Source of the DNA: an uncultured Muribaculaceae bacterium
GTDB lineage: Bacteria; Bacillota_I; Bacilli_A; RF39; UBA660
Direction: 5' to 3'
Length of the DNA stretch: 63,126 bases
Assembly: GCA_964616495.1 (NCBI GenBank)
Contig: CAZTRF010000001.1
Span: 3,759 to 66,884 of the forward strand
Numbering within the stretch: the first letter of the stretch is position 1; the number at the start of each line of letters is the position of its first letter. A model generated the notes under the pieces. That model was given only the letters and a program-made list of their open reading frames with translations. It had not been told where the DNA came from and ran no database searches. Below are positions 3,677-45,330 of the stretch, piece by piece. Position numbers and translations under genes: made by a program.

Positions 3677-6518
<2,842 letters not shown>

Positions 6519-6519
<1 letters not shown>

Positions 6520-7265
6520 TGTTTGAAAAAATTAAATCATCAAAAAAATATGGGCTTTTATGTGAAGATATAATAAGACGGATAATATCAGAAGAAGTTG
6601 TAAAATATAAAAAAATTAAAGATGCAGAGAACAGTGTTAAAACAAAACTTCATATATCATATGGTGCATTCTTTAAAGCTAAATGCCATGAAACAGCCCT
6701 AAGAATGTATGAAGAAGGTAGAAATTTGGAAGATATATTAAGATTACATGTTTCTACTGAAGAGCGTCTTCCTTTTTTAAAAGAATTTTATGATTATATT
6801 TTTACACTAGCAAAAGGTGATAGTATTATAGATTTGGGATGTGGCTTTAATCCTCTAACTTATCATTATCAAGGGGATATTTCAAAGTACTATGCTTATG
6901 ATTTAGATTTTAGAACCAAAAATTTAATAAATGCATATTTTGAAGCTGAAAAAATAGATGGAAAAGCTGAAGTCGTAGATTTATTATCTAAAGTTCCTGA
7001 TGAAAAGGCAGATATAACGTATTTATTTAAACTTCTTCCTCTTTTAGAAGCTCAAAAAAAAGGCCGTGCTGTTGATATACTAAATGCATTACAAACAAAA
7101 TATTGTATAATTACTTATCCCTTAAAATCAATCTCTGGTAAAGAAAAAAATATGGGTGATAGTTATTCAAAACAATTTGAATCAATTATTGCTAGGACTG
7201 ATTTAGAAGTTATTGGAGAAAATAAAATTGAAAACGAATTAATTTATGTAACAAAAAGAAAGTAA
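6519..7265 (+). CDS. 16S rRNA (guanine1405-N7)-methyltransferase family protein (ArmA/Rmt/FmrO-like)
   Basis: Blocks match my recollection of ArmA: SSKKYG, TKLH.SYGAF, LRLHVSTEERL, FYDYIF, IIDLGCGFNPLTY (SAM site), YYAYDLD, LFKLLPLLE, ITYPLKSISGKEKNMG and NELIYVT. ATG 6519 overlaps the upstream stop (TAATG). Confidence 0.75.
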
Positions 7266-7268
7266 TTG

Positions 7269-8273
7269 ATGAATATGATAGAATTAAAAAAAATTAAGAT
7301 GTCATATGATAAAAAAGTTATATTAAAAAATATATCTTTTAATATAAACAAAGGAGAATTTGTTGTTGTTTTAGGTCCAAATGGTAGTGGTAAATCTACA
7401 ATTTTGAATATTATTAGTGGCATTTTAAAATGTGATTCCGGGAAATTATTATTTGAAAATAAAGACATTACTAAGTATGAACCATATAGAAGAAATATTT
7501 CTATGATTTTTCAGAACTATGCCTTATATCCTCAAATGACAGTCTATGATAATTTAGCTTTTAGTTTAAAGTGTCACAAAGTTGACAAAAATTCTATTAA
7601 CGAAAAAGTAAAAAATATCAGTAATAAATTAAGTTTAAATGATAAATTAGAAAAATATCCTAATGAATTGTCGGGAGGTGAACAACAAAGGGTTGCAATT
7701 GCAAGGGCTTTAGTAAAAAACTCGAATATTTGTTTAATGGATGAACCATTGGCTAATTTAGATTCTCATTATCGCCAAGAAATGATAAAAGTAATACTGA
7801 GTAATTTTAAAGATGAAAATCATAGTATTGTTTATGTGACGCACAATCAAACTGAAGCAATGATATTGGCAGATAAAATAATTGTTTTAAATGAAGGAAA
7901 AGTAGAACAGATAGGAAATTATGAAGAATTGTATAATAATCCAACTAATATGTTTGTAGCCGAATTTATTGGTGATCCTAAAATGAATATTATAGAATTT
8001 AACAATAAGCAAAGCAAATTTTATTTAGGGTTTAGAGCAGAAAAAACAAGTTTTGAATCAATTGATGATAGCATTAAACTTGAAGCAAATTACTTGTCTT
8101 CCATTTTTGCCGGAAAGTATCAGATGATTGATTGCCTTATTAATAATACCGTTTGTCAACTGATAGTCTTTAATAATATAAAAAAAGTTAATAAAAAATT
8201 TAACATATTTATATCCAAAAAAAACTTATATTATTTTGATATAAATACAAAAGAAAGAGTGAGTGAAATATGA
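7269..8273 (+). CDS. Sugar-type ABC transporter ATP-binding protein (MalK/MsmK/UgpC-like)
   Basis: Walker A GPNGSGKST, Q-loop, signature LSGGEQQRVAIARAL, Walker B CLMDEPLANLD, H-loop VYVTHNQ, and a C-terminal regulatory-type domain. Confidence 0.85.
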   Translation: MNMIELKKIKMSYDKKVILKNISFNINKGEFVVVLGPNGSGKSTILNIISGILKCDSGKLLFENKDITKYEPYRRNISMIFQNYALYPQMTVYDNLAFSLKCHKVDKNSINEKVKNISNKLSLNDKLEKYPNELSGGEQQRVAIARALVKNSNICLMDEPLANLDSHYRQEMIKVILSNFKDENHSIVYVTHNQTEAMILADKIIVLNEGKVEQIGNYEELYNNPTNMFVAEFIGDPKMNIIEFNNKQSKFYLGFRAEKTSFESIDDSIKLEANYLSSIFAGKYQMIDCLINNTVCQLIVFNNIKKVNKKFNIFISKKNLYYFDINTKERVSEI

Positions 8274-9493
8274 AAAGAAAAAAAATTATATTTGTTGGAT
8301 TAATAATTGTTATTATTGTAATAATAACAATTGCTATTTTAAATAAAAAGAAAGATCAAATTACGATTGCAACTTGGGATAGTAATTTAGTTGATTCTAT
8401 TAAAAAAAGTTTTATTGAATTTAACAAAAATCACGATTATGAAGTGGTGGTTACATCGTTACCATGGGATGAATATTGGGTAGCTGTTGATAATGCCATT
8501 ACTAATGAAAGTGGTATAGATATTTTTATAATGCATACAGACAAAATAGAAGAGTATGCTAAAAGTGGAAAAATGTTAAAGATGGATGATATTTTAACTA
8601 AAGATGATTTAAAAAATTATGAATCAGATCTTATTAATTTATTTAGTTATCAAGGAAGTATATATGGTATTCCCTTAGATATTTCAAGTATTGGTTTGTT
8701 TTATAATAAAGAAATATTTGATGATAAAAAAGTTTCTTATCCGACAAATGATTGGACTTGGGAAGATTTAGTTGAAACATCTAAATTATTAAATGATGAC
8801 AAAAAAGAGATTAGTGGCTTTTTAGCAGAATGCTGGGGAGAAGATGGTTATTATAATACTATTTTTCAAAATAAAGGATTTATTTATAATGAGAAAACTG
8901 GTAAATGGGGATTTAACGAAAATAGTGCTAGTGGAGGATTAAAATATTATTATGATTTTATTTATAAATATGGAGTGTCTTTGACTCCAGAAGAAATAGG
9001 AGATTTGGATACTAATGATTTATTTACTTCCGGAAAAGTTGCTATGTTCTTTAGAGGAAGTTGGGAATTATATAATTTTAAATTTAATGAAGATATAAGT
9101 GGAAAATTTGGAGTTGTTGAGTTACCAAAAGGTAAAATTGAAGCCAACACTGGAAATGCAACTGTTTTTTCTAGTTATACTGATAATAAAAATATAGAAA
9201 AAGTAAAAGAGGTATTATTAGTATTAAAAAGTGATGAATTATATAAAAATATAGCAAATGATGGTATTAGTATTCCAGCTAATATTAATTATCGAAATTT
9301 ATGGGCAGAACAAGGAAAAGAGTTTGGAGCTGTTAATTTAGTAAATAGTATAAAACATTCTAAATTTATGCCTTCATTTACCGGAAATAAAAAATGGAAA
9401 GATATAGAATCTGAGGAAATATATAAAATATTTATTAACGAAACCAATTTAAAAAATGGTTTGGATAAAATATATGAAGAACTCAAAAAGTAA
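8270..9493 (+). CDS. Extracellular solute-binding protein (family 1, sugar-type), signal-anchored
   Basis: N-terminal KRKK plus a hydrophobic anchor with no lipobox Cys. It is about 400 aa and rich in aromatic and acidic residues, as SBPs are. It sits between the ATPase and permeases. The start overlaps the upstream stop (ATGA). Confidence 0.7.
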   Translation: MKRKKIIFVGLIIVIIVIITIAILNKKKDQITIATWDSNLVDSIKKSFIEFNKNHDYEVVVTSLPWDEYWVAVDNAITNESGIDIFIMHTDKIEEYAKSGKMLKMDDILTKDDLKNYESDLINLFSYQGSIYGIPLDISSIGLFYNKEIFDDKKVSYPTNDWTWEDLVETSKLLNDDKKEISGFLAECWGEDGYYNTIFQNKGFIYNEKTGKWGFNENSASGGLKYYYDFIYKYGVSLTPEEIGDLDTNDLFTSGKVAMFFRGSWELYNFKFNEDISGKFGVVELPKGKIEANTGNATVFSSYTDNKNIEKVKEVLLVLKSDELYKNIANDGISIPANINYRNLWAEQGKEFGAVNLVNSIKHSKFMPSFTGNKKWKDIESEEIYKIFINETNLKNGLDKIYEELKK

Positions 9494-10367
9494 AAAAATT
9501 TTATTTACATTAACGATAATATTAGTATTATTTATAATATTAATATATATATATCCTTTTATAAAAACAGTAGTAAATAGTTTTTATAGCATTAATTTAA
9601 ATAATAGCACATACGTCGGTTTTAGCAATTACATAGAACTATTTAAAAATGAAGCATTTGGAAAAGCAATAGTAAATTCAATACTATTTTCGATAGTTAC
9701 AACAATTACTATTGTTTTTCTAGCATCTTTTTATATGTATTTAATAAATTATAAAATTAAGTCTTTAAAAATAAAAAATTTTTTAATCATTATTATTGTA
9801 ATTCCTTCTATTATATCCATTATTTCTGTTTCTAGTATTTTTGCAAATATGTTTAATTATAAATATGGATTTATCAATAATGTGTTACAATCATTTAATA
9901 TTTCAAAAGTATTTTGGTTAACTAGTAATAAAGTTACTCCATTAGTTATAATAATTATATATATATGGAGAAATGTTGGATATACATTATTAATATTTAT
10001 TACTGCGTATAAAACTATTCCCCAAAATATTATAAAAGCAGCTTTTTTAGAAACAAATAAAAGTATAAAAATATACTTGAAAATAGTCATTCCATATATA
10101 TTTAATTATTTTTTAATTTCAGTAATTATTAACATTATTGATGCAACTAAACAATATGATCTTATTTATATGCTTATTGGGTATAAAAAAGCTCAGTTTA
10201 TTGGATACGAAACAATGCTATCTTCTTTTTATAAATACTTTTATGTTTATAATGACAAAGGTATGTCTTCGGCAGTTATAGTAATAACAACACTAATTAT
10301 TTTATTAATATTATTATTTTGTGTTTTAATTTTAAAAAGGAGAAAAAAATATGAAACTAAAAAATAA
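9456..10367 (+). CDS. ABC transporter permease (MalF/UgpA-like)
   Basis: Six predicted TM helices and an EAA-like loop (KAAFLETNKSIKIYLKIVIPYI). The start is uncertain (ATG 9456 or 9474). Confidence 0.7.
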   Translation: MVWIKYMKNSKSKKILFTLTIILVLFIILIYIYPFIKTVVNSFYSINLNNSTYVGFSNYIELFKNEAFGKAIVNSILFSIVTTITIVFLASFYMYLINYKIKSLKIKNFLIIIIVIPSIISIISVSSIFANMFNYKYGFINNVLQSFNISKVFWLTSNKVTPLVIIIIYIWRNVGYTLLIFITAYKTIPQNIIKAAFLETNKSIKIYLKIVIPYIFNYFLISVIINIIDATKQYDLIYMLIGYKKAQFIGYETMLSSFYKYFYVYNDKGMSSAVIVITTLIILLILLFCVLILKRRKKYETKK

Positions 10368-11151
10368 AATATCACATATTTTTATTTGGATGTTGACCAT
10401 TTTATTTTTTATATTGCCTATTTTTATAACCATTTTAACGACTTTAAAATCAAATACAGAATTTACTATGGTGCCAAGGACAATAATTCCTAATGAAATT
10501 TATTTGGGGAATTTTTTAAATGTTTTTAAAAAAATGCCTTTCTTATCATTATTTGCTAACACTATTTTTTTGTGTCTAGCATCAGGAATTATATCAATAA
10601 CAATTAGTATATTTTTAGGGTATATATTAGCGTACAAAGAGTTTAAGGGAAAAAAATTGCTTGTTTTATTTGTGATTTTAAATTTAATAATTCCTACAGA
10701 AATATATATGTCAACTTGGTTAAAATATATTGGAATAATAGGCCTATATAATAATTTATTAGCTTTATTATTACCATTTTTATTTTCATCTTTTGGAATA
10801 TTATTTATGTGGAAAGTATTTAAAAATATTCCTACTAATATAATTACGATATTAAAATTAGAATGTAAAAATGATTTTGAAATAGTAAGAAGATTTTTAA
10901 TTACCTATATTTTTGAAGATTTAAAAATATTGTTTATATATCTTTCTTTGTTTTGCTGGGAAAGTTTTATGTGGCCAATATTAGTTAATTATTCAACCAA
11001 AAAATTAACTTTGACTTCTGGATTGTCACAATTTATGGGAGCTTATTATATTGATATGCCTTTATTAATAACAGCTACTTTGTTTTCAACTTTGCCATAT
11101 ATTTTTTTATCTATCTTTTTATTTAAAAAAAATAAAAAAGGTGGTAAATAA
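10351..11151 (+). CDS. ABC transporter permease (MalG/UgpE-like, divergent EAA loop)
   Basis: Multi-TM protein with an AGGAG RBS. It overlaps the upstream permease by 17 nt. The call is by position and topology. Confidence 0.65.
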   Translation: MKLKNKISHIFIWMLTILFFILPIFITILTTLKSNTEFTMVPRTIIPNEIYLGNFLNVFKKMPFLSLFANTIFLCLASGIISITISIFLGYILAYKEFKGKKLLVLFVILNLIIPTEIYMSTWLKYIGIIGLYNNLLALLLPFLFSSFGILFMWKVFKNIPTNIITILKLECKNDFEIVRRFLITYIFEDLKILFIYLSLFCWESFMWPILVNYSTKKLTLTSGLSQFMGAYYIDMPLLITATLFSTLPYIFLSIFLFKKNKKGGK

Positions 11152-11152
11152 T

Positions 11153-12469
11153 ATGATTAAAGAAGATTTTAATTTTCATACTCACACGTTTAGATGTGGT
11201 CATGCTTTCGGAAAAGAAGAAGAATATATAAAAGCGGCTATAGATAAAAATATAAGAGTGTTAGGATTTTCAGATCATATGCCATATTATCCATTATTTG
11301 TTAATGATATAGAGCAAAGAATGACATATTTTGATATTCCGGATTATTACTATACTATTAAAAATTTAAAAAAGAAATACTATGAAGATATTACAATATT
11401 ATTTGGTTTTGAAGGAGAATATGATGAATTACAATTAAAGCATTTAATAACATTGGGTAATATAAGCGATTTTATGATTTTGGGTCAGCACTATGTTAGA
11501 GGGGAAAACCCAAATAATAATTATCTATATCCTCAAAAATATGCGGATATTATAATACGGGGAATAAAAAGTGGAATATTTGATATTTTAGGTCATCCAG
11601 ATTATTTTTTGCGTTTTAGAGATTCGATATCTTTTGATACTCTATCGAGCACCAATAAATCGTATTTTGGCTCTAAAAAAAGGTATTTAGAAGCATATAA
11701 TGAAGAAACTAATAAAGCAATTAGAAGAATATTAGAAGTAGCTCAAGAAACAAAAATTCCCATCGAACTTAATTATGGCGCAATATATGACGATGAAAGA
11801 CAAAGCGACGGTTATTGTTACTATCCTCATCCATTCTTTTGGGATATAGCTAAAAATTATAAAATTACCGTTTTTCCAGCAATTGATGCTCATAGTCCAG
11901 ATCAAATTTCTTCATTTTCAATAGAATTTTTTGAAAAAGAATTAAATACCAAACTAACAGAATTATTAACTACATCAGAAGGTTTATCTTTTCAATATTC
12001 ATCTGCATTTTTAGCAAAAACGCAAAAATATTTTCCAGGCATTTATAATGCTGAAACTGTTTATATTATTAATTTAGTAGAAAAAAATAAAGATAAACTT
12101 TCTTTTTCAAATTGGAAAAGGGCCTTAATTACAATTCTACAAAAAGTTTTGTTAGATGAGTATGAAAAATTACAAACCTCAAAAAATAGAATTAAGTTTT
12201 ATTTTTCTAATCAAGCAATTGATTGGAGTACCTATCAACTATATACACCCAAAAAAGCAGAAGAATTAATAAATAGACAAATAGAAGTAGAAGAAAATGC
12301 TTTAGTAGAATTAAATGAATTAATTAATATATGTATTAATATATTAAAATCTACGCCAGAAATAAAAACCAATTCCCTTGAAGAATCATTAAAAATATTT
12401 TATACTCAAATTGATCGTATGTACAATAATTATGGTCGATTAAAACAAATGCTTGTGAAAGGAATTTAA
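11153..12469 (+). CDS. PHP-domain phosphoesterase (HisJ-like histidinol-phosphatase family) with a roughly 170-aa C-terminal helical extension
   Basis: N-terminal FNFHTHTFRCGHA (PHP motif I), then GFSDHMPY, GHPDY and IDAHSP metal-ligand motifs. The C-terminal third is charged and helical and not part of canonical PHP. Confidence 0.6.
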   Translation: MIKEDFNFHTHTFRCGHAFGKEEEYIKAAIDKNIRVLGFSDHMPYYPLFVNDIEQRMTYFDIPDYYYTIKNLKKKYYEDITILFGFEGEYDELQLKHLITLGNISDFMILGQHYVRGENPNNNYLYPQKYADIIIRGIKSGIFDILGHPDYFLRFRDSISFDTLSSTNKSYFGSKKRYLEAYNEETNKAIRRILEVAQETKIPIELNYGAIYDDERQSDGYCYYPHPFFWDIAKNYKITVFPAIDAHSPDQISSFSIEFFEKELNTKLTELLTTSEGLSFQYSSAFLAKTQKYFPGIYNAETVYIINLVEKNKDKLSFSNWKRALITILQKVLLDEYEKLQTSKNRIKFYFSNQAIDWSTYQLYTPKKAEELINRQIEVEENALVELNELINICINILKSTPEIKTNSLEESLKIFYTQIDRMYNNYGRLKQMLVKGI

Positions 12470-12470
12470 T

Positions 12471-13289
12471 ATGAAAATAGATAAATATCTAAAATATTAT
12501 GATATTAAATATTTAGGGGAAGGATTTCGTAGTAAATCTTATATTATTGATAATAAATATATATTTTTAGAGGGTAATAATGATAAATCTTACAAAACTT
12601 ACAAGAAAGATTATAAAGTATTGAACTTTCTTAAAGATAAAATTAAAACAGTTTTAATACCTAATAATGTTATTTTAGTAAAAAAAGATAACGATAATCC
12701 TACTGGGGGTTTAATATATAAAATTATTAATGATCAGGTTTTTAATTATGATAAATTAAAAACCTATAATTTAGATAATATAGCTTTTGAAATTAGTGTA
12801 TTTTTAAATGAATTACATAGTATCAAAATAGCCTATAATTATGAAAAAATAATTACTAAAGACTTAAAAAATATAAAATCTAATATTAACAAAATAAAGA
12901 AATTTATATCTAAAAAATACTTTGAAAATTTAGATAGCTTTTATAAAGAGTATGAAAATTTTACTAAACATAATAAAAAATTATATTTAGTTCATGGTGA
13001 TTTATGGTATGAAAATTATATTATCTCTAAAGACGGAAATCATCTAAAAGGAATTATTGATTTTGAAAATTGTAAATATTTTTATAAAGAAGATGATTTA
13101 GTTCCTATGACCTATTTAGGAAATAAATTTTTAGACAAAGTTATACTTAATTATAAATACAAAGTTTTAAAAGAAAATATCAAAATTTTTAAAATAAGAA
13201 GAGAAGTAATTAGTTTTAATTACTTATTAAAATATTTTCCAGAAGAAAAAGAAGATCAACTAAAGAAAATAATTGATTCACTAAAATAG
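12471..13289 (+). CDS. APH-fold (aminoglycoside/small-molecule) phosphotransferase family kinase
   Basis: Catalytic loop HGDLWYENYII (HxDxxxxN) and IIDFENC (DFE/DFG-like Mg site). At about 270 aa it has the size of APH/choline-kinase-like enzymes. Confidence 0.6.
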   Translation: MKIDKYLKYYDIKYLGEGFRSKSYIIDNKYIFLEGNNDKSYKTYKKDYKVLNFLKDKIKTVLIPNNVILVKKDNDNPTGGLIYKIINDQVFNYDKLKTYNLDNIAFEISVFLNELHSIKIAYNYEKIITKDLKNIKSNINKIKKFISKKYFENLDSFYKEYENFTKHNKKLYLVHGDLWYENYIISKDGNHLKGIIDFENCKYFYKEDDLVPMTYLGNKFLDKVILNYKYKVLKENIKIFKIRREVISFNYLLKYFPEEKEDQLKKIIDSLK

Positions 13290-13303
13290 TTTTAGTGAAT
13301 CAA
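13273..13303 (+). terminator. Perfect 14-bp hairpin at the operon end (terminator-like, no clear U tract)
   Basis: TTGATTCACTAAAA (13273-13286), loop TAG (the stop codon), TTTTAGTGAATCAA (13290-13303). Confidence 0.45.
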
Positions 13304-13341
13304 TTATAGATAGGTGTATAGAAACAGATAATAAAAACTAA

Positions 13342-42980: not shown

Positions 42981-43667
42981 ATGGTTTCAAAAGAACATCT
43001 AAAAGAATTAGAAAGTACTTTTAGTCAAAATGAAAAACATGGTAATCTTTTAGTACCTAGTCATAATTTTACTAAAGGGCTTGGAAATATTATATTGACT
43101 GCTCCCCATACCGTTATTACAAGCAAAATTAAAAATGGAATTGAAACTATAAAAGAAAATGAATCTTATACTGGGGCTATTACTTTAATGTGTGGTGAAA
43201 TTGCTGGATGTCATACCATGACCCGTAACAATTATAATGATGTTACTGCTATCACTAATTTTTATAATGAATATTTACAAGATTATATTTCTTCTTATGG
43301 AATAGTTGGTCATTTAGATATTCATGGTGCTGCCAGGACTAATCCTTATGATGTATCAATAGGTACTAATCATCTTGAACATATTTTTTACGATCAACAG
43401 GTTTACGAAATTGTTAATGATGGATTTAATGATTATGGAATTAATAATGTGGTTTGGAATTCTAAATTTCAAGCCTCTACTAAAGCAACTTTATGTCGTC
43501 AGGTATTCTTAGGTAAAATGATTCATACTCTTCAACTAGAGATAAATAAAAATTATCGCGATTTAAATGATTTTGAGAAAATGGTAGCTCTTATTAAGGC
43601 CATTTCTGAAATAGCTATAAATTTAAATGAGCATTTATCTTCCGGTGGTTTAGGATATGGCAGATAA
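42981..43667 (+). CDS. Metal-dependent amidohydrolase-like protein (N-formylglutamate amidohydrolase / PghP poly-glutamate hydrolase-like fold, tentative)
   Basis: The conserved pattern APH...ENESYTG...HLDIHGA...GTNH...LQLEINKNYR (H, E, H, E candidate ligands) is shared with the C-terminal domain of the next gene. The family assignment is from memory only. Confidence 0.4.
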   Translation: MVSKEHLKELESTFSQNEKHGNLLVPSHNFTKGLGNIILTAPHTVITSKIKNGIETIKENESYTGAITLMCGEIAGCHTMTRNNYNDVTAITNFYNEYLQDYISSYGIVGHLDIHGAARTNPYDVSIGTNHLEHIFYDQQVYEIVNDGFNDYGINNVVWNSKFQASTKATLCRQVFLGKMIHTLQLEINKNYRDLNDFEKMVALIKAISEIAINLNEHLSSGGLGYGR

Positions 43668-45330
43668 TAGTTTATTAAATATTAATACCTATGATTATCC
43701 ATTAGACAAAAACTTGATTGCTCAAACGCCTATAAAAAATCGCGATCAATCAAAATTAATGGTTGTCAATCGTAAAAATGGTGATATTTCTCACCATATT
43801 TTTTCTGATATTATAAATTACTTAAATAAGGGCGATTGCCTAGTACTAAATGATACTAAAGTAATACCCGCCAGACTATTTGGAGTAAAAGAAGCAACAA
43901 AAGCTCATATTGAAATACTTTTATTAAAAGATAATGGTAATAACTTATGGGATTGCCTTATTAGAAATTCCAGAAGATTAAAACAAGAAGATATTATTTC
44001 TTTTGGTGAAGGATTATTAAAAGGGAAAGTCATTTCTAAGGCCTCTGATGGGGTAATAAAACTTCAATTAATATATGATGGCATTTTATATGAAATACTT
44101 GATAAACTAGGAGAAATGCCCTTACCGCCATATATTCATAAACATTTAAAAGAACAAGATCGTTATCAAACGGTATATGCTAAAAATATTGGTAGTGCTG
44201 CAGCTCCTACTGCCGGATTACATTTTACAAAAAAATTACTTGACGATATTGAAAAAAAAGGTATAATAATTTGCTACGTCACATTGCATGTTGGTTTAGG
44301 TACTTTTAGACCAGTTGAAGAAGATAATATTTTAAATCACCATATGCATAGTGAATATTATGAAATGACTTCGGATGTGGCAAAATTATTAAATGATGCT
44401 AAAGAAAGTCATCATAAAATTATTGCTGTAGGAACAACCTCTACTAGAGTATTAGAAACCGTCTATAGTAAATATAATTCCTTTAAAGAATCTTTTGGAA
44501 ATACCGATATTTTTATCTATCCGGGATATACCTTTAAAGCAATTGATTCTTTAATTACTAATTTTCATTTGCCAAAATCAACTTTAATGATGCTAGTAAG
44601 TGCTTTTAGTAGTAAAGATATTATTATGAATGCTTATAGAGAAGCTATGAATAAAAAATATCGTTTCTTTTCATTTGGTGATGCCATGCTTTTGGATATT
44701 CCTAATTATGAAAAATTGTTAGACGAGTTTAAAAATCAAAAGATTTATTTAAAAAAAGATAATTTTAAAATTTTAAAAGGAACCATTCCTATAATGATAT
44801 CAGTTCCTCATAGTAAAAAGCATTTACGAGATGGAATGGTTAAAAATAATGAACATAATACAGCTAGAATTGCTAAACTATTATATTGTTTAACTAATTG
44901 TCATTTAATCTATGCCTATAAACAGGGAGATAATGACCATAACTATGATGAAAGTTCTAATTATAAAAAAAAGTTAAAAGCCTATATAAAAGAAAATAAC
45001 ATTAAGATATTAATAGATATTCATGGTATGGCTGATTCTTATGACATCGAGTTAGGAACTAACCATTATCAAAATATTTTTAATGATAAAGATATTATAA
45101 ATAATATTAAAGATATATTTTATAAAAATAATATAAAGAATGTATTTGTCGACCGAAAATTTAAAGCTAAAAGACATAATACTATTAGCAATTACATAAA
45201 TAAAGAATGTAATATTAAAACTATTCAACTAGAAATAGGCCCTAAGTATCGTAAAATCAAATTAAGACCAAAATCATTTAATAAAATTATAATAAGTTTA
45301 GAAGAAATCATAAATAAGAATAAGGAGTGA
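43657..45330 (+). CDS. queA: S-adenosylmethionine:tRNA ribosyltransferase-isomerase QueA fused to a C-terminal amidohydrolase-like domain
   Basis: Residues 1 to about 347 are canonical QueA (LIAQTPIKNRDQSKLMVV, LVLNDTKVIPARLFG, PLPPYI, AAPTAGLHFT, GTTS.RVLE, NFHLPKSTL, RFFSFGDAMLL). Residues from about 365 to 557 repeat the pattern of 42981-43667 (VPH...NNEHNTA...LIDIHGM...GTNH...IQLEIGPKYR). Confidence 0.85.
   Translation: MADNSLLNINTYDYPLDKNLIAQTPIKNRDQSKLMVVNRKNGDISHHIFSDIINYLNKGDCLVLNDTKVIPARLFGVKEATKAHIEILLLKDNGNNLWDCLIRNSRRLKQEDIISFGEGLLKGKVISKASDGVIKLQLIYDGILYEILDKLGEMPLPPYIHKHLKEQDRYQTVYAKNIGSAAAPTAGLHFTKKLLDDIEKKGIIICYVTLHVGLGTFRPVEEDNILNHHMHSEYYEMTSDVAKLLNDAKESHHKIIAVGTTSTRVLETVYSKYNSFKESFGNTDIFIYPGYTFKAIDSLITNFHLPKSTLMMLVSAFSSKDIIMNAYREAMNKKYRFFSFGDAMLLDIPNYEKLLDEFKNQKIYLKKDNFKILKGTIPIMISVPHSKKHLRDGMVKNNEHNTARIAKLLYCLTNCHLIYAYKQGDNDHNYDESSNYKKKLKAYIKENNIKILIDIHGMADSYDIELGTNHYQNIFNDKDIINNIKDIFYKNNIKNVFVDRKFKAKRHNTISNYINKECNIKTIQLEIGPKYRKIKLRPKSFNKIIISLEEIINKNKE

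Follow-up and report, generated by a model that had tools for sequence, protein, structure and literature searches.

The rmt locus

The window, meaning the whole stretch of DNA that was analysed (63,126 nt of contig CAZTRF010000001.1, assembly GCA_964616495.1), carries a gene pair made up of a paralog of tRNA-guanine transglycosylase (TGT), here called TGT2, and a predicted Rmt/FmrO-type 16S rRNA methyltransferase, here called Rmt (gene, rmt). Positions are those of the whole window on the + strand as read, and Rmt residues are numbered on the 257-aa form. Judged by profile, structure and model comparisons, Rmt is a genuine, divergent member of the Arm/Rmt family lying in its native, TGT2-coupled configuration. 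The features discussed are collected in Table 1.

The gene had been placed at 6519-7265 in a preliminary description. An intact open reading frame (ORF) was found there on the + strand, ending at 7265, with candidate starts at 6492 (257 aa) and 6519 (248 aa). The ATG at 6492 is more likely to be the true start, because it is preceded by a Shine-Dalgarno sequence (AGGAAG), the public gene call (P0001) is 257 aa long, the alignments to the RmtE-family hidden Markov model (HMM) and to the closest homologue extend upstream of Met-10, and residues 3-15 were modelled as a confident first helix. The TGT2 stop codon (TAA, 6517-6519) shares one base with the ATG at 6519, and the two frames overlap from either start (by 28 nt from 6492, or by 1 nt as TAATG from 6519), which bears out the translational coupling proposed earlier; homologous TGT2-Rmt pairs overlap by 8-20 nt.

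Table 1. Positions of the rmt gene, its partner and other features of the window
Feature	Position	Strand	Evidence
Rmt/FmrO-type 16S rRNA (guanine1405-N7) methyltransferase gene (predicted)	6492..7265	+	257 aa; PF07091, NF000466, PDB matches, AlphaFold2 model
TGT paralog (TGT2), 372 aa	5401..6519	+	PF01702, 345.7 bits
Overlap of TGT2 3' end and Rmt 5' end	6492..6519	+	Sequence read; TAATG at 6517-6521
Canonical tRNA-guanine(34) transglycosylase Tgt, GGTSVGE loop	49804..50931	+	PF01702, 518.8 bits
ABC-F ATPase, ribosomal-protection-like	3677..5323	+	NF000355, 428.3 bits (cut-off 380)
Promoter-like site (TTGACT, 16-nt spacer, TG-extended TAGTAT)	5327..5354	+	Consensus scan, pattern match only
Six co-directional genes (ABC ATPase, solute-binding protein, two permeases, PHP-domain protein, APH/fructosamine-kinase-like protein)	7266..13289	+	Pfam
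18-bp hairpin at the end of the co-directional string	13269..13307		Terminator-like scan

Family assignment and predicted structure of Rmt

Rmt scored 119.6 bits (cut-off 27; E 2e-34) against the Pfam FmrO family (PF07091), in a full-length match that spans positions 2-255 of the 255 in the profile. All NCBIfam Rmt models matched the protein, the general Rmt equivalog NF000466 scoring highest; the family-specific cut-offs for ArmA and RmtB-H (500-550 bits) were not reached, the best being RmtE at 153.6 bits against 525. Sequence matches to solved structures were RmtB (3b89/3frh, E 2.4e-36), RmtF (6pi9, 3.9e-36), ArmA (3fzg, 2.7e-30), Sgm (3lcu, 1.4e-29) and RmtC (4e-25). The resemblance to ArmA described earlier held up block by block, all of the motifs (SKKY, KLH..YG, LH.ST.ER, FY.Y.F, DxGCGFNPL, Y.AYD.D, FKLLP.L and PxKSxSGKEKxM) being present and aligned with ArmA, and the similarity search against the Arm/Rmt family that had been proposed as a check was significant, with identities of 37-38% to RmtE, 35% to ArmA, 33% to RmtF, 32% to RmtB and 29% to RmtC.

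A model of Rmt was built with AlphaFold2 using 41 homologues from the fetched loci (mean predicted local distance difference test score (pLDDT) 95.8, predicted template modelling score 0.91). As in RmtB, Sgm and RmtC, a helical N-terminus of two subdomains is followed by a C-terminal domain with the class I Rossmann fold. Foldseek comparison of the model to the PDB gave template modelling (TM) scores of 0.89 to RmtF (6PI9), 0.87 to RmtB (3FRH) and 0.87 to Sgm (3LCV), with root mean square deviations of 1.7-2.4 A; the best 16 matches were all Arm/Rmt/Sgm enzymes that make 7-methylguanosine at position 1405 (m7G1405) (TM 0.63-0.89), and generic methyltransferases followed at TM ~0.5. The earlier proposal of an Arm/Rmt-type homologue is thus well founded in both the profile and the fold.

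Residues with assigned roles in RmtC in 30S docking, catalysis and S-adenosylmethionine (SAM) binding (bioRxiv 10.1101/712810) were located in Rmt by alignment. The docking residues K20 and R50 correspond to K19 and K50 of Rmt; H54, K236, R241 and M245, which serve catalysis and not binding, correspond to H54, K212, K217 and M221; and the SAM ligands R111, D160, D188 and Q212 correspond to R92, D137, D163 and Q188. The sequence of Rmt contains nothing that speaks against m7G1405 activity.

The TGT2 partner

Since the window also encodes a canonical Tgt, TGT2 is a true paralog. Its catalytic residues (Asp75, Asp133 and Asp260) and zinc ligands (Cys315, Cys317, Cys320 and His346) are intact and are invariant in its clade. 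In the base-pocket loop, GGWPLD replaces GG[LT][AS]VGE, with the Trp and Pro conserved in at least 90% of the clade and the switch Glu lost; by alignment, the equivalent loop GGLAVGE forms the 7-substituent pocket in the Tgt enzymes of E. coli and Z. mobilis. TGT2 passes the NCBI Tgt equivalog TIGR00430 (344.7 bits against 306.75), and plasmid-borne copies are therefore annotated as ordinary Tgt. The TGT2 clade is separate from canonical Tgt (100 by the Shimodaira-Hasegawa-like approximate likelihood ratio test, SH-aLRT), and its tree mirrors that of Rmt, joining the window copy to that of locus L022 and then to L023, the rmtE2-linked copy, Defluviitaleaceae and L087. Ten genomes with the pair, five from Bacillota and five from Chloroflexota, were tested for a canonical Tgt and every one had it, at 494-567 bits against 298-342 bits for the paralog, so TGT2 is not the housekeeping enzyme. 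A literature search found no functional study of a TGT2-type paralog.

Distribution of the TGT2-Rmt pair

Homologue loci were collected from 80 genomes by an alignment-based scan of species genomes; a single-protein scan of the same kind of collection returned no Rmt relatives. A TGT gene was found in the flanks of 75 of the 80 loci, upstream in 70 (within 150 nt in 61) and downstream in 5, and one more locus held a remnant. All of these flanking genes scored higher against the window TGT2 than against canonical Tgt. The pair occurs in Bacillota, Chloroflexota, Acidobacteriota, Armatimonadota and Dictyoglomota, on metagenomic contigs and beside the ArmA-like genes of three metagenome-assembled genomes (MAGs). 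One protein, P0133 (628 aa), is a natural TGT-FmrO fusion; no fusion ORF was seen in the loci fetched. In Flavonifractor porci P01024 (L036), a 54-aa TGT2 remnant with a stop codon precedes an intact Rmt gene, the pair having decayed to the methyltransferase alone.

The reciprocal scan with a TGT2 alignment was dominated by canonical tgt genes, which share the TDSGGFQ pattern, and its 65 canonical loci served as a negative control. Among the matches listed, an Rmt gene lay within 3 kb in 0 of the 65 canonical loci and in 10 of the 15 TGT2-type loci. The other five TGT2-type loci, with no detectable Rmt, adjoin genes for a PIG-L enzyme, an RsmB/F-type methyltransferase, pyruvate kinase, TPR proteins and a nuclease-like protein, and for that reason the linkage is strong but not absolute.

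The recurrent neighbours of the pair, confirmed with NCBIfam models, are RsmI (49 loci), RsmF-like proteins (20), RsmE (15) and RsmH (13). These are the very enzymes that act on C1402, C1407 and U1498, around G1405 (PMC12406665). TGT2 and Rmt make up the core of a two-gene decoding-centre module that is widely conserved; the module predates several mobile rmt cassettes and gave rise to them. The window pair shares with it the co-directional adjacent TGT gene, membership of the GGWP-loop clade and a canonical Tgt elsewhere.

Chloroflexi homologues have been termed uncharacterised (bioRxiv 10.1101/712810). In many Chloroflexota loci the FmrO gene is followed at once by another in tandem (L034:4777-5595, L038:3201-4019, L050:4768-5586 and others); these second copies group in a clade of their own (18 rows, 99 SH-aLRT) and perhaps act on a different target. 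At L050:7944-8690 and in eight other Chloroflexota loci, a transporter gene of the Vut_1/YhhQ family (E 4e-44) is located ~3 kb from the pair. YhhQ belongs to the preQ0/preQ1 importer family in E. coli, and the presence of this gene in the nine loci is a weak hint of a 7-deazaguanine substrate.

Relation to acquired methyltransferases

In an exhaustive HMMER search of 1.84 billion representatives, 1,440 relatives were found. A tree of 130 rows was inferred by maximum likelihood quick search (LG+G4, SH-aLRT support, with a midpoint root for drawing only). All acquired enzymes (ArmA, RmtB, RmtC, RmtD, RmtE, RmtF and RmtG) and the window Rmt fell in a Bacillota-type clade of 61 rows (95 SH-aLRT), with a Chloroflexota clade standing apart. 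Within it, the window Rmt, RmtE and sequences from Lachnospiraceae, Christensenellales and Defluviitaleaceae formed a subclade of 25 rows (98), and the closest neighbour of the window Rmt was the L022 protein (99), from a 1.5-Mb genome of 28% guanine + cytosine (GC). The clade of ArmA comprised RmtC and five metagenomic proteins, P0064 and P0071 among them (97).

The best ArmA relatives in this sample were 37-39% identical to it. A pattern scan of 185,579 species genomes for ArmA found no homologue between 37% and 100% identity; it yielded acquired armA, homologues at 35-37% in three MAGs (two labelled uncultured Gammaproteobacteria and one unclassified bacterium) and one weaker, partial match. 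The GC content is 30.4% for armA, 26.9% for the window rmt gene and 37% for rmtE. The window Rmt was considered as a lead to the source of armA and set aside, being 35% identical to ArmA, equalled in this by dozens of homologues and placed in the other clade, with RmtE. The window gene is not the source of armA, gives no privileged lead to it and does not solve the origin of that gene.

Genes of the TGT2 type, 52-65% identical to the window TGT2, adjoin the clinical genes rmtB2, rmtD1, rmtG and rmtE2, and are intact beside the first three and 5'-truncated beside rmtE2. A metallophosphoesterase gene stands between tgt and rmtB2 (L107:4652-5461, Providencia plasmid p12100-NDM); a phosphoesterase, the PHP protein, also occurs further down the window operon. 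The rmtG array on Klebsiella plasmids reads rsmH-tgt-rmtG-truncated methyltransferase (rsmI), and rmtG has been described in an operon with rsmH, tgt and rsmI in which tgt was assigned no function (PMC9311965, PMC3904158).

At L028:2898-4729 (CAKUKM010000019.1, a Hadza-gut Clostridia MAG), the methyltransferase shares 83% identity with RmtD1, and the adjacent TGT2 shares 92% with the product of the tgt gene beside rmtD1 on Klebsiella plasmids, which suggests that the rmtD1 pair was acquired as a whole from an organism closely related to this one. At L048:1565-4985 (SFHK01000065.1, Clostridiales MAG W1P1.020), an RmtF allele 98.8% identical to RmtF1 (592.6 bits against the RmtF cut-off of 500) lies in the layout rsmH-TGT2-rmtF on a contig of matching GC (63-68%), and the Oscillospiraceae MAGs L032 and L051 carry RmtF copies at 88% identity; the organisms of L048, L032 and L051 are candidates for the natural source of rmtF. 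Taken together, these identities point to anaerobic Clostridia as the proximate sources of rmtF and rmtD. The earlier suggestion that the window gene might mark the reservoir of these resistance genes survives in this broad sense only, in that Clostridia MAGs with the same pair hold RmtF at 98.8% and RmtD at 83%; for armA the window gene offers no special lead.

Host genome and neighbouring genes

The genome is a 1.0-Mb, 93%-complete MAG, and the window has 27.4% GC, in line with the very low-GC genome described earlier. The host Obg shares 66% identity with its counterparts in MAGs from gut and rumen that carry the labels Bacillota, Bacilli or Erysipelotrichaceae. No FmrO gene and no second TGT was found in any of 40 relatives, among them four congeners and a further 20 from the host's family; 37 of the 40 had canonical Tgt only (in one split over two contigs) and three gave no TGT match. 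Because none of the 40 has either gene, the pair is accessory in the lineage, and the description of the methyltransferase as intrinsic to it was not borne out. GC at third codon positions is host-like (rmt 11.6%, TGT2 17.2%, canonical tgt 15.7%), and on this ground the pair is not a fresh import. No transposase or integrase domains were found among the ORFs between 3.6 and 22.9 kb of the window, which agrees with the chromosomal, non-transposon location given before, and the pair is flanked by no insertion sequence (IS), ISCR or transposon and is not on a plasmid.

Operon placement was likewise upheld, the pair standing in a co-directional string of genes. The ABC-F gene lies directly upstream, across a 77-nt gap that holds the promoter-like site; such pattern matches were not enriched over shuffled sequence. 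Downstream genes follow rmt with gaps of 0-3 nt, the importer being of sugar type, the PHP protein 442 aa long and the kinase match weak (E 1e-6 to 1e-7). A scan of 15 relatives from the host's family with the PHP protein gave no match. Membership of the module was considered for the importer, the PHP protein and the kinase and was rejected, as none adjoins the pair at any other locus. In the sister genome of L022, the order rsmI-TGT2-Rmt occurs at a different point of the same obg neighbourhood; synteny of rpmA-obg in the closest MAGs is too little conserved to date the insertion.

QueA is encoded in an ORF of 557 aa (43657-45330), with the QueA domain at residues 10-346 and a C-terminal extension of ~210 residues without any match in Pfam. 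Neither QueC nor YhhQ was detected in the window genome, so queuosine in the host probably depends on salvaged precursors.

Proposed function and alternatives

Rmt is probably an active SAM-dependent m7G1405 methyltransferase, made together with TGT2 as a decoding-centre module that has a native ribosome-modifying role. Docking on the 30S subunit, methylation of G1405 and resistance are bracketed from the solved relatives. The two helical N-terminal subdomains would dock on the h24/h27/h44/h45 surface of the assembled 30S subunit, and G1405 would flip out into the site in the Rossmann fold to receive a methyl group at N7. A side effect would be to block 4,6-disubstituted deoxystreptamine aminoglycosides (such as kanamycin, gentamicin and amikacin), giving intrinsic resistance. 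In this anaerobic gut lineage the native role may be modification or tuning of the ribosome with TGT2 and not drug defence, TGT2 acting on the same or a neighbouring guanine. We infer such a role from the genomic context and because aminoglycosides are poorly taken up by strict anaerobes. The possibly non-resistance role raised in the preliminary description gains plausibility from the pairing of TGT2 and Rmt inside rsmI/rsmH/rsmE/rsmF operons.

Several findings weigh against this account. With 247.5 bits from the shorter form (248 aa) and 248.0 bits from the longer (257 aa), Rmt falls 2 bits short of the NF000466 equivalog cut-off of 250; the sister L022 protein (231.9) and one Chloroflexota homologue (229) fall short by more. 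None of the 1,440 relatives exceeded 45% identity, which is the value for the nearest sequence of all. One residue differs among those defined in RmtC, R211 being Ala187 in Rmt; this position is variable elsewhere (Ala in RmtF, Gln in RmtE, a gap in ArmA). The absence of the gene from the 40 relatives marks it as dispensable for the lineage. Genes for rsmI, rsmH, rsmE and rsmF are not adjacent to the window pair, whose neighbours are the ABC-F gene and the sugar-type importer, and the embedding among them that is usual for the module is thus missing in the window. The assembly also lacks the 16S rRNA gene, and with it the target site.

Rmt might instead be primarily a resistance determinant, acquired and kept under aminoglycoside pressure in an animal gut as part of a small resistance island with the ABC-F protein and the APH-fold kinase. 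That none of the 40 relatives carries the gene would fit, as would an ABC-F protein that passes the NCBI ribosomal-protection-like cut-off, an APH/fructosamine-kinase-like gene in the same string and the proven resistance genes among the same-clade relatives; tgt itself also has an effect on aminoglycoside tolerance in Vibrio cholerae (PMC11703503). However, there are no mobile-element genes near the pair, its codon GC is fully host-like, the kinase match is weak and lies beside a sugar-type importer, and neither importer, PHP protein nor kinase accompanies the pair elsewhere, where its usual companions are housekeeping rRNA methyltransferases. Poor uptake of aminoglycosides in strict anaerobes would also make for weak selection, and we regard this explanation as unlikely.

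Similarly improbable is a native target other than G1405 (a base installed by TGT2, another 16S nucleotide or a tRNA), with methylation of G1405 in Enterobacterales as a side activity. The coupling to, and in P0133 the fusion with, a base-exchange enzyme can be read in this way, the tandem second Rmt copies that form a separate clade in Chloroflexota suggest diversified targets, and Rmt scores just below the NF000466 cut-off. Against this, the m7G1405 enzymes RmtD1, RmtG, RmtB2, RmtE2 and one RmtF allele all derive from operons linked to TGT2, the residues that handle G1405 are all conserved, and the N-terminal 30S-docking domain is intact and confidently modelled. It would be surprising indeed if Rmt were an inactive relic, no longer expressed or functional: relatives dispense with the gene and the genome is small and reduced (1.0 Mb), but the ORF is intact, the catalytic and binding residues are all kept, the start overlaps the upstream gene and has a Shine-Dalgarno sequence, and the fold was modelled at a pLDDT of 96.

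With Rmt taken as an m7G1405 methyltransferase, three options stand for TGT2: it may exchange a base at the methylated guanine or close to it, act on tRNA with a second specificity, or serve as a non-catalytic partner. It is conceivable, if rather doubtful, that TGT2 is an rRNA-guanine transglycosylase that swaps the m7G1405 made by Rmt, or a neighbouring guanine of helix 44, and that this is the native purpose of Arm/Rmt enzymes. Methylation of N7 by Rmt would make G1405 a good leaving group, the GGWP loop would no longer read an unmethylated N7 through the backbone NH at the Pro position, and the incoming base might be a salvaged 7-deazaguanine. If so, the TGT2 reaction would be the first base-exchange modification in ribosomal RNA. 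The methyltransferases of this family do not need TGT2 to give resistance, because rmtE2 functions although its tgt is truncated, and armA and rmtB1 function with no tgt at all. The high-level resistance given by rmtD and rmtG beside an intact tgt speaks against mere removal of m7G1405 by TGT2.

Nearly every aminoglycoside in clinical use is defeated by the Arm/Rmt methyltransferases. What is new here is a very divergent, AT-rich, chromosomal member of the family from a gut Bacilli lineage. The locus shows the native state of Arm/Rmt genes, a fixed partnership with a specialised TGT paralog that usually lies in decoding-centre modification operons, and this pairing leads to a concrete, testable hypothesis for the role of Arm/Rmt enzymes without antibiotic. 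Its main interest is as another clean chromosomal example of an uncharacterised two-enzyme module.

Comparison with known systems

TGT2 resembles the canonical Tgt of E. coli and Z. mobilis in identity (40-43%), TIM-barrel family, catalytic Asp residues and CxCxxC...H zinc site. It differs in the GGWPLD loop, in an insertion of ~20 residues after RHNRLYV and in being a second, rmt-linked copy beside canonical Tgt, whereas canonical tgt is not rmt-linked (0 of 65 loci).

Among acquired enzymes RmtE is nearest to the window Rmt, sharing its clade of 25 rows (98) and giving the best family-specific NCBIfam score (153.6 bits), although this is far under the family cut-off of 525. The rmtE2 gene is preceded, with an 11-nt overlap, by a TGT2-type gene whose product is 65% identical to the window TGT2. 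The rmtE genes lie on plasmid cassettes flanked by IS91/Tn3, with tgt 5'-truncated, and rmtE1 and rmtE2 are carried on IncC, IncF and IncI plasmids, whereas the window pair is chromosomal, intact and of 27% GC. ArmA (3FZG) has the family, fold and motif blocks in common with Rmt, at 35% identity and with low GC in both genes, but it belongs to the other clade (with RmtC, 97 SH-aLRT), and plasmid-borne armA has no adjoining tgt. RmtF, RmtB and Sgm (6PI9, 3FRH and 3LCV) and 30S-bound RmtC (8GHU) share the whole-chain fold, and the SAM-binding and loop residues are kept, at 29-32% sequence identity to the window protein.

The rmtG, rmtD1 and rmtB2 arrays also have a TGT2-type gene followed by rmt, in the same order and with overlap, and their TGT2 proteins are 52-54% identical to that of the window. 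Unlike the window pair, which has no rsmH or rsmI neighbours, these arrays have been mobilised by ISCR/IS91/IS26, have 59-60% GC and derive from Clostridia-like sources.

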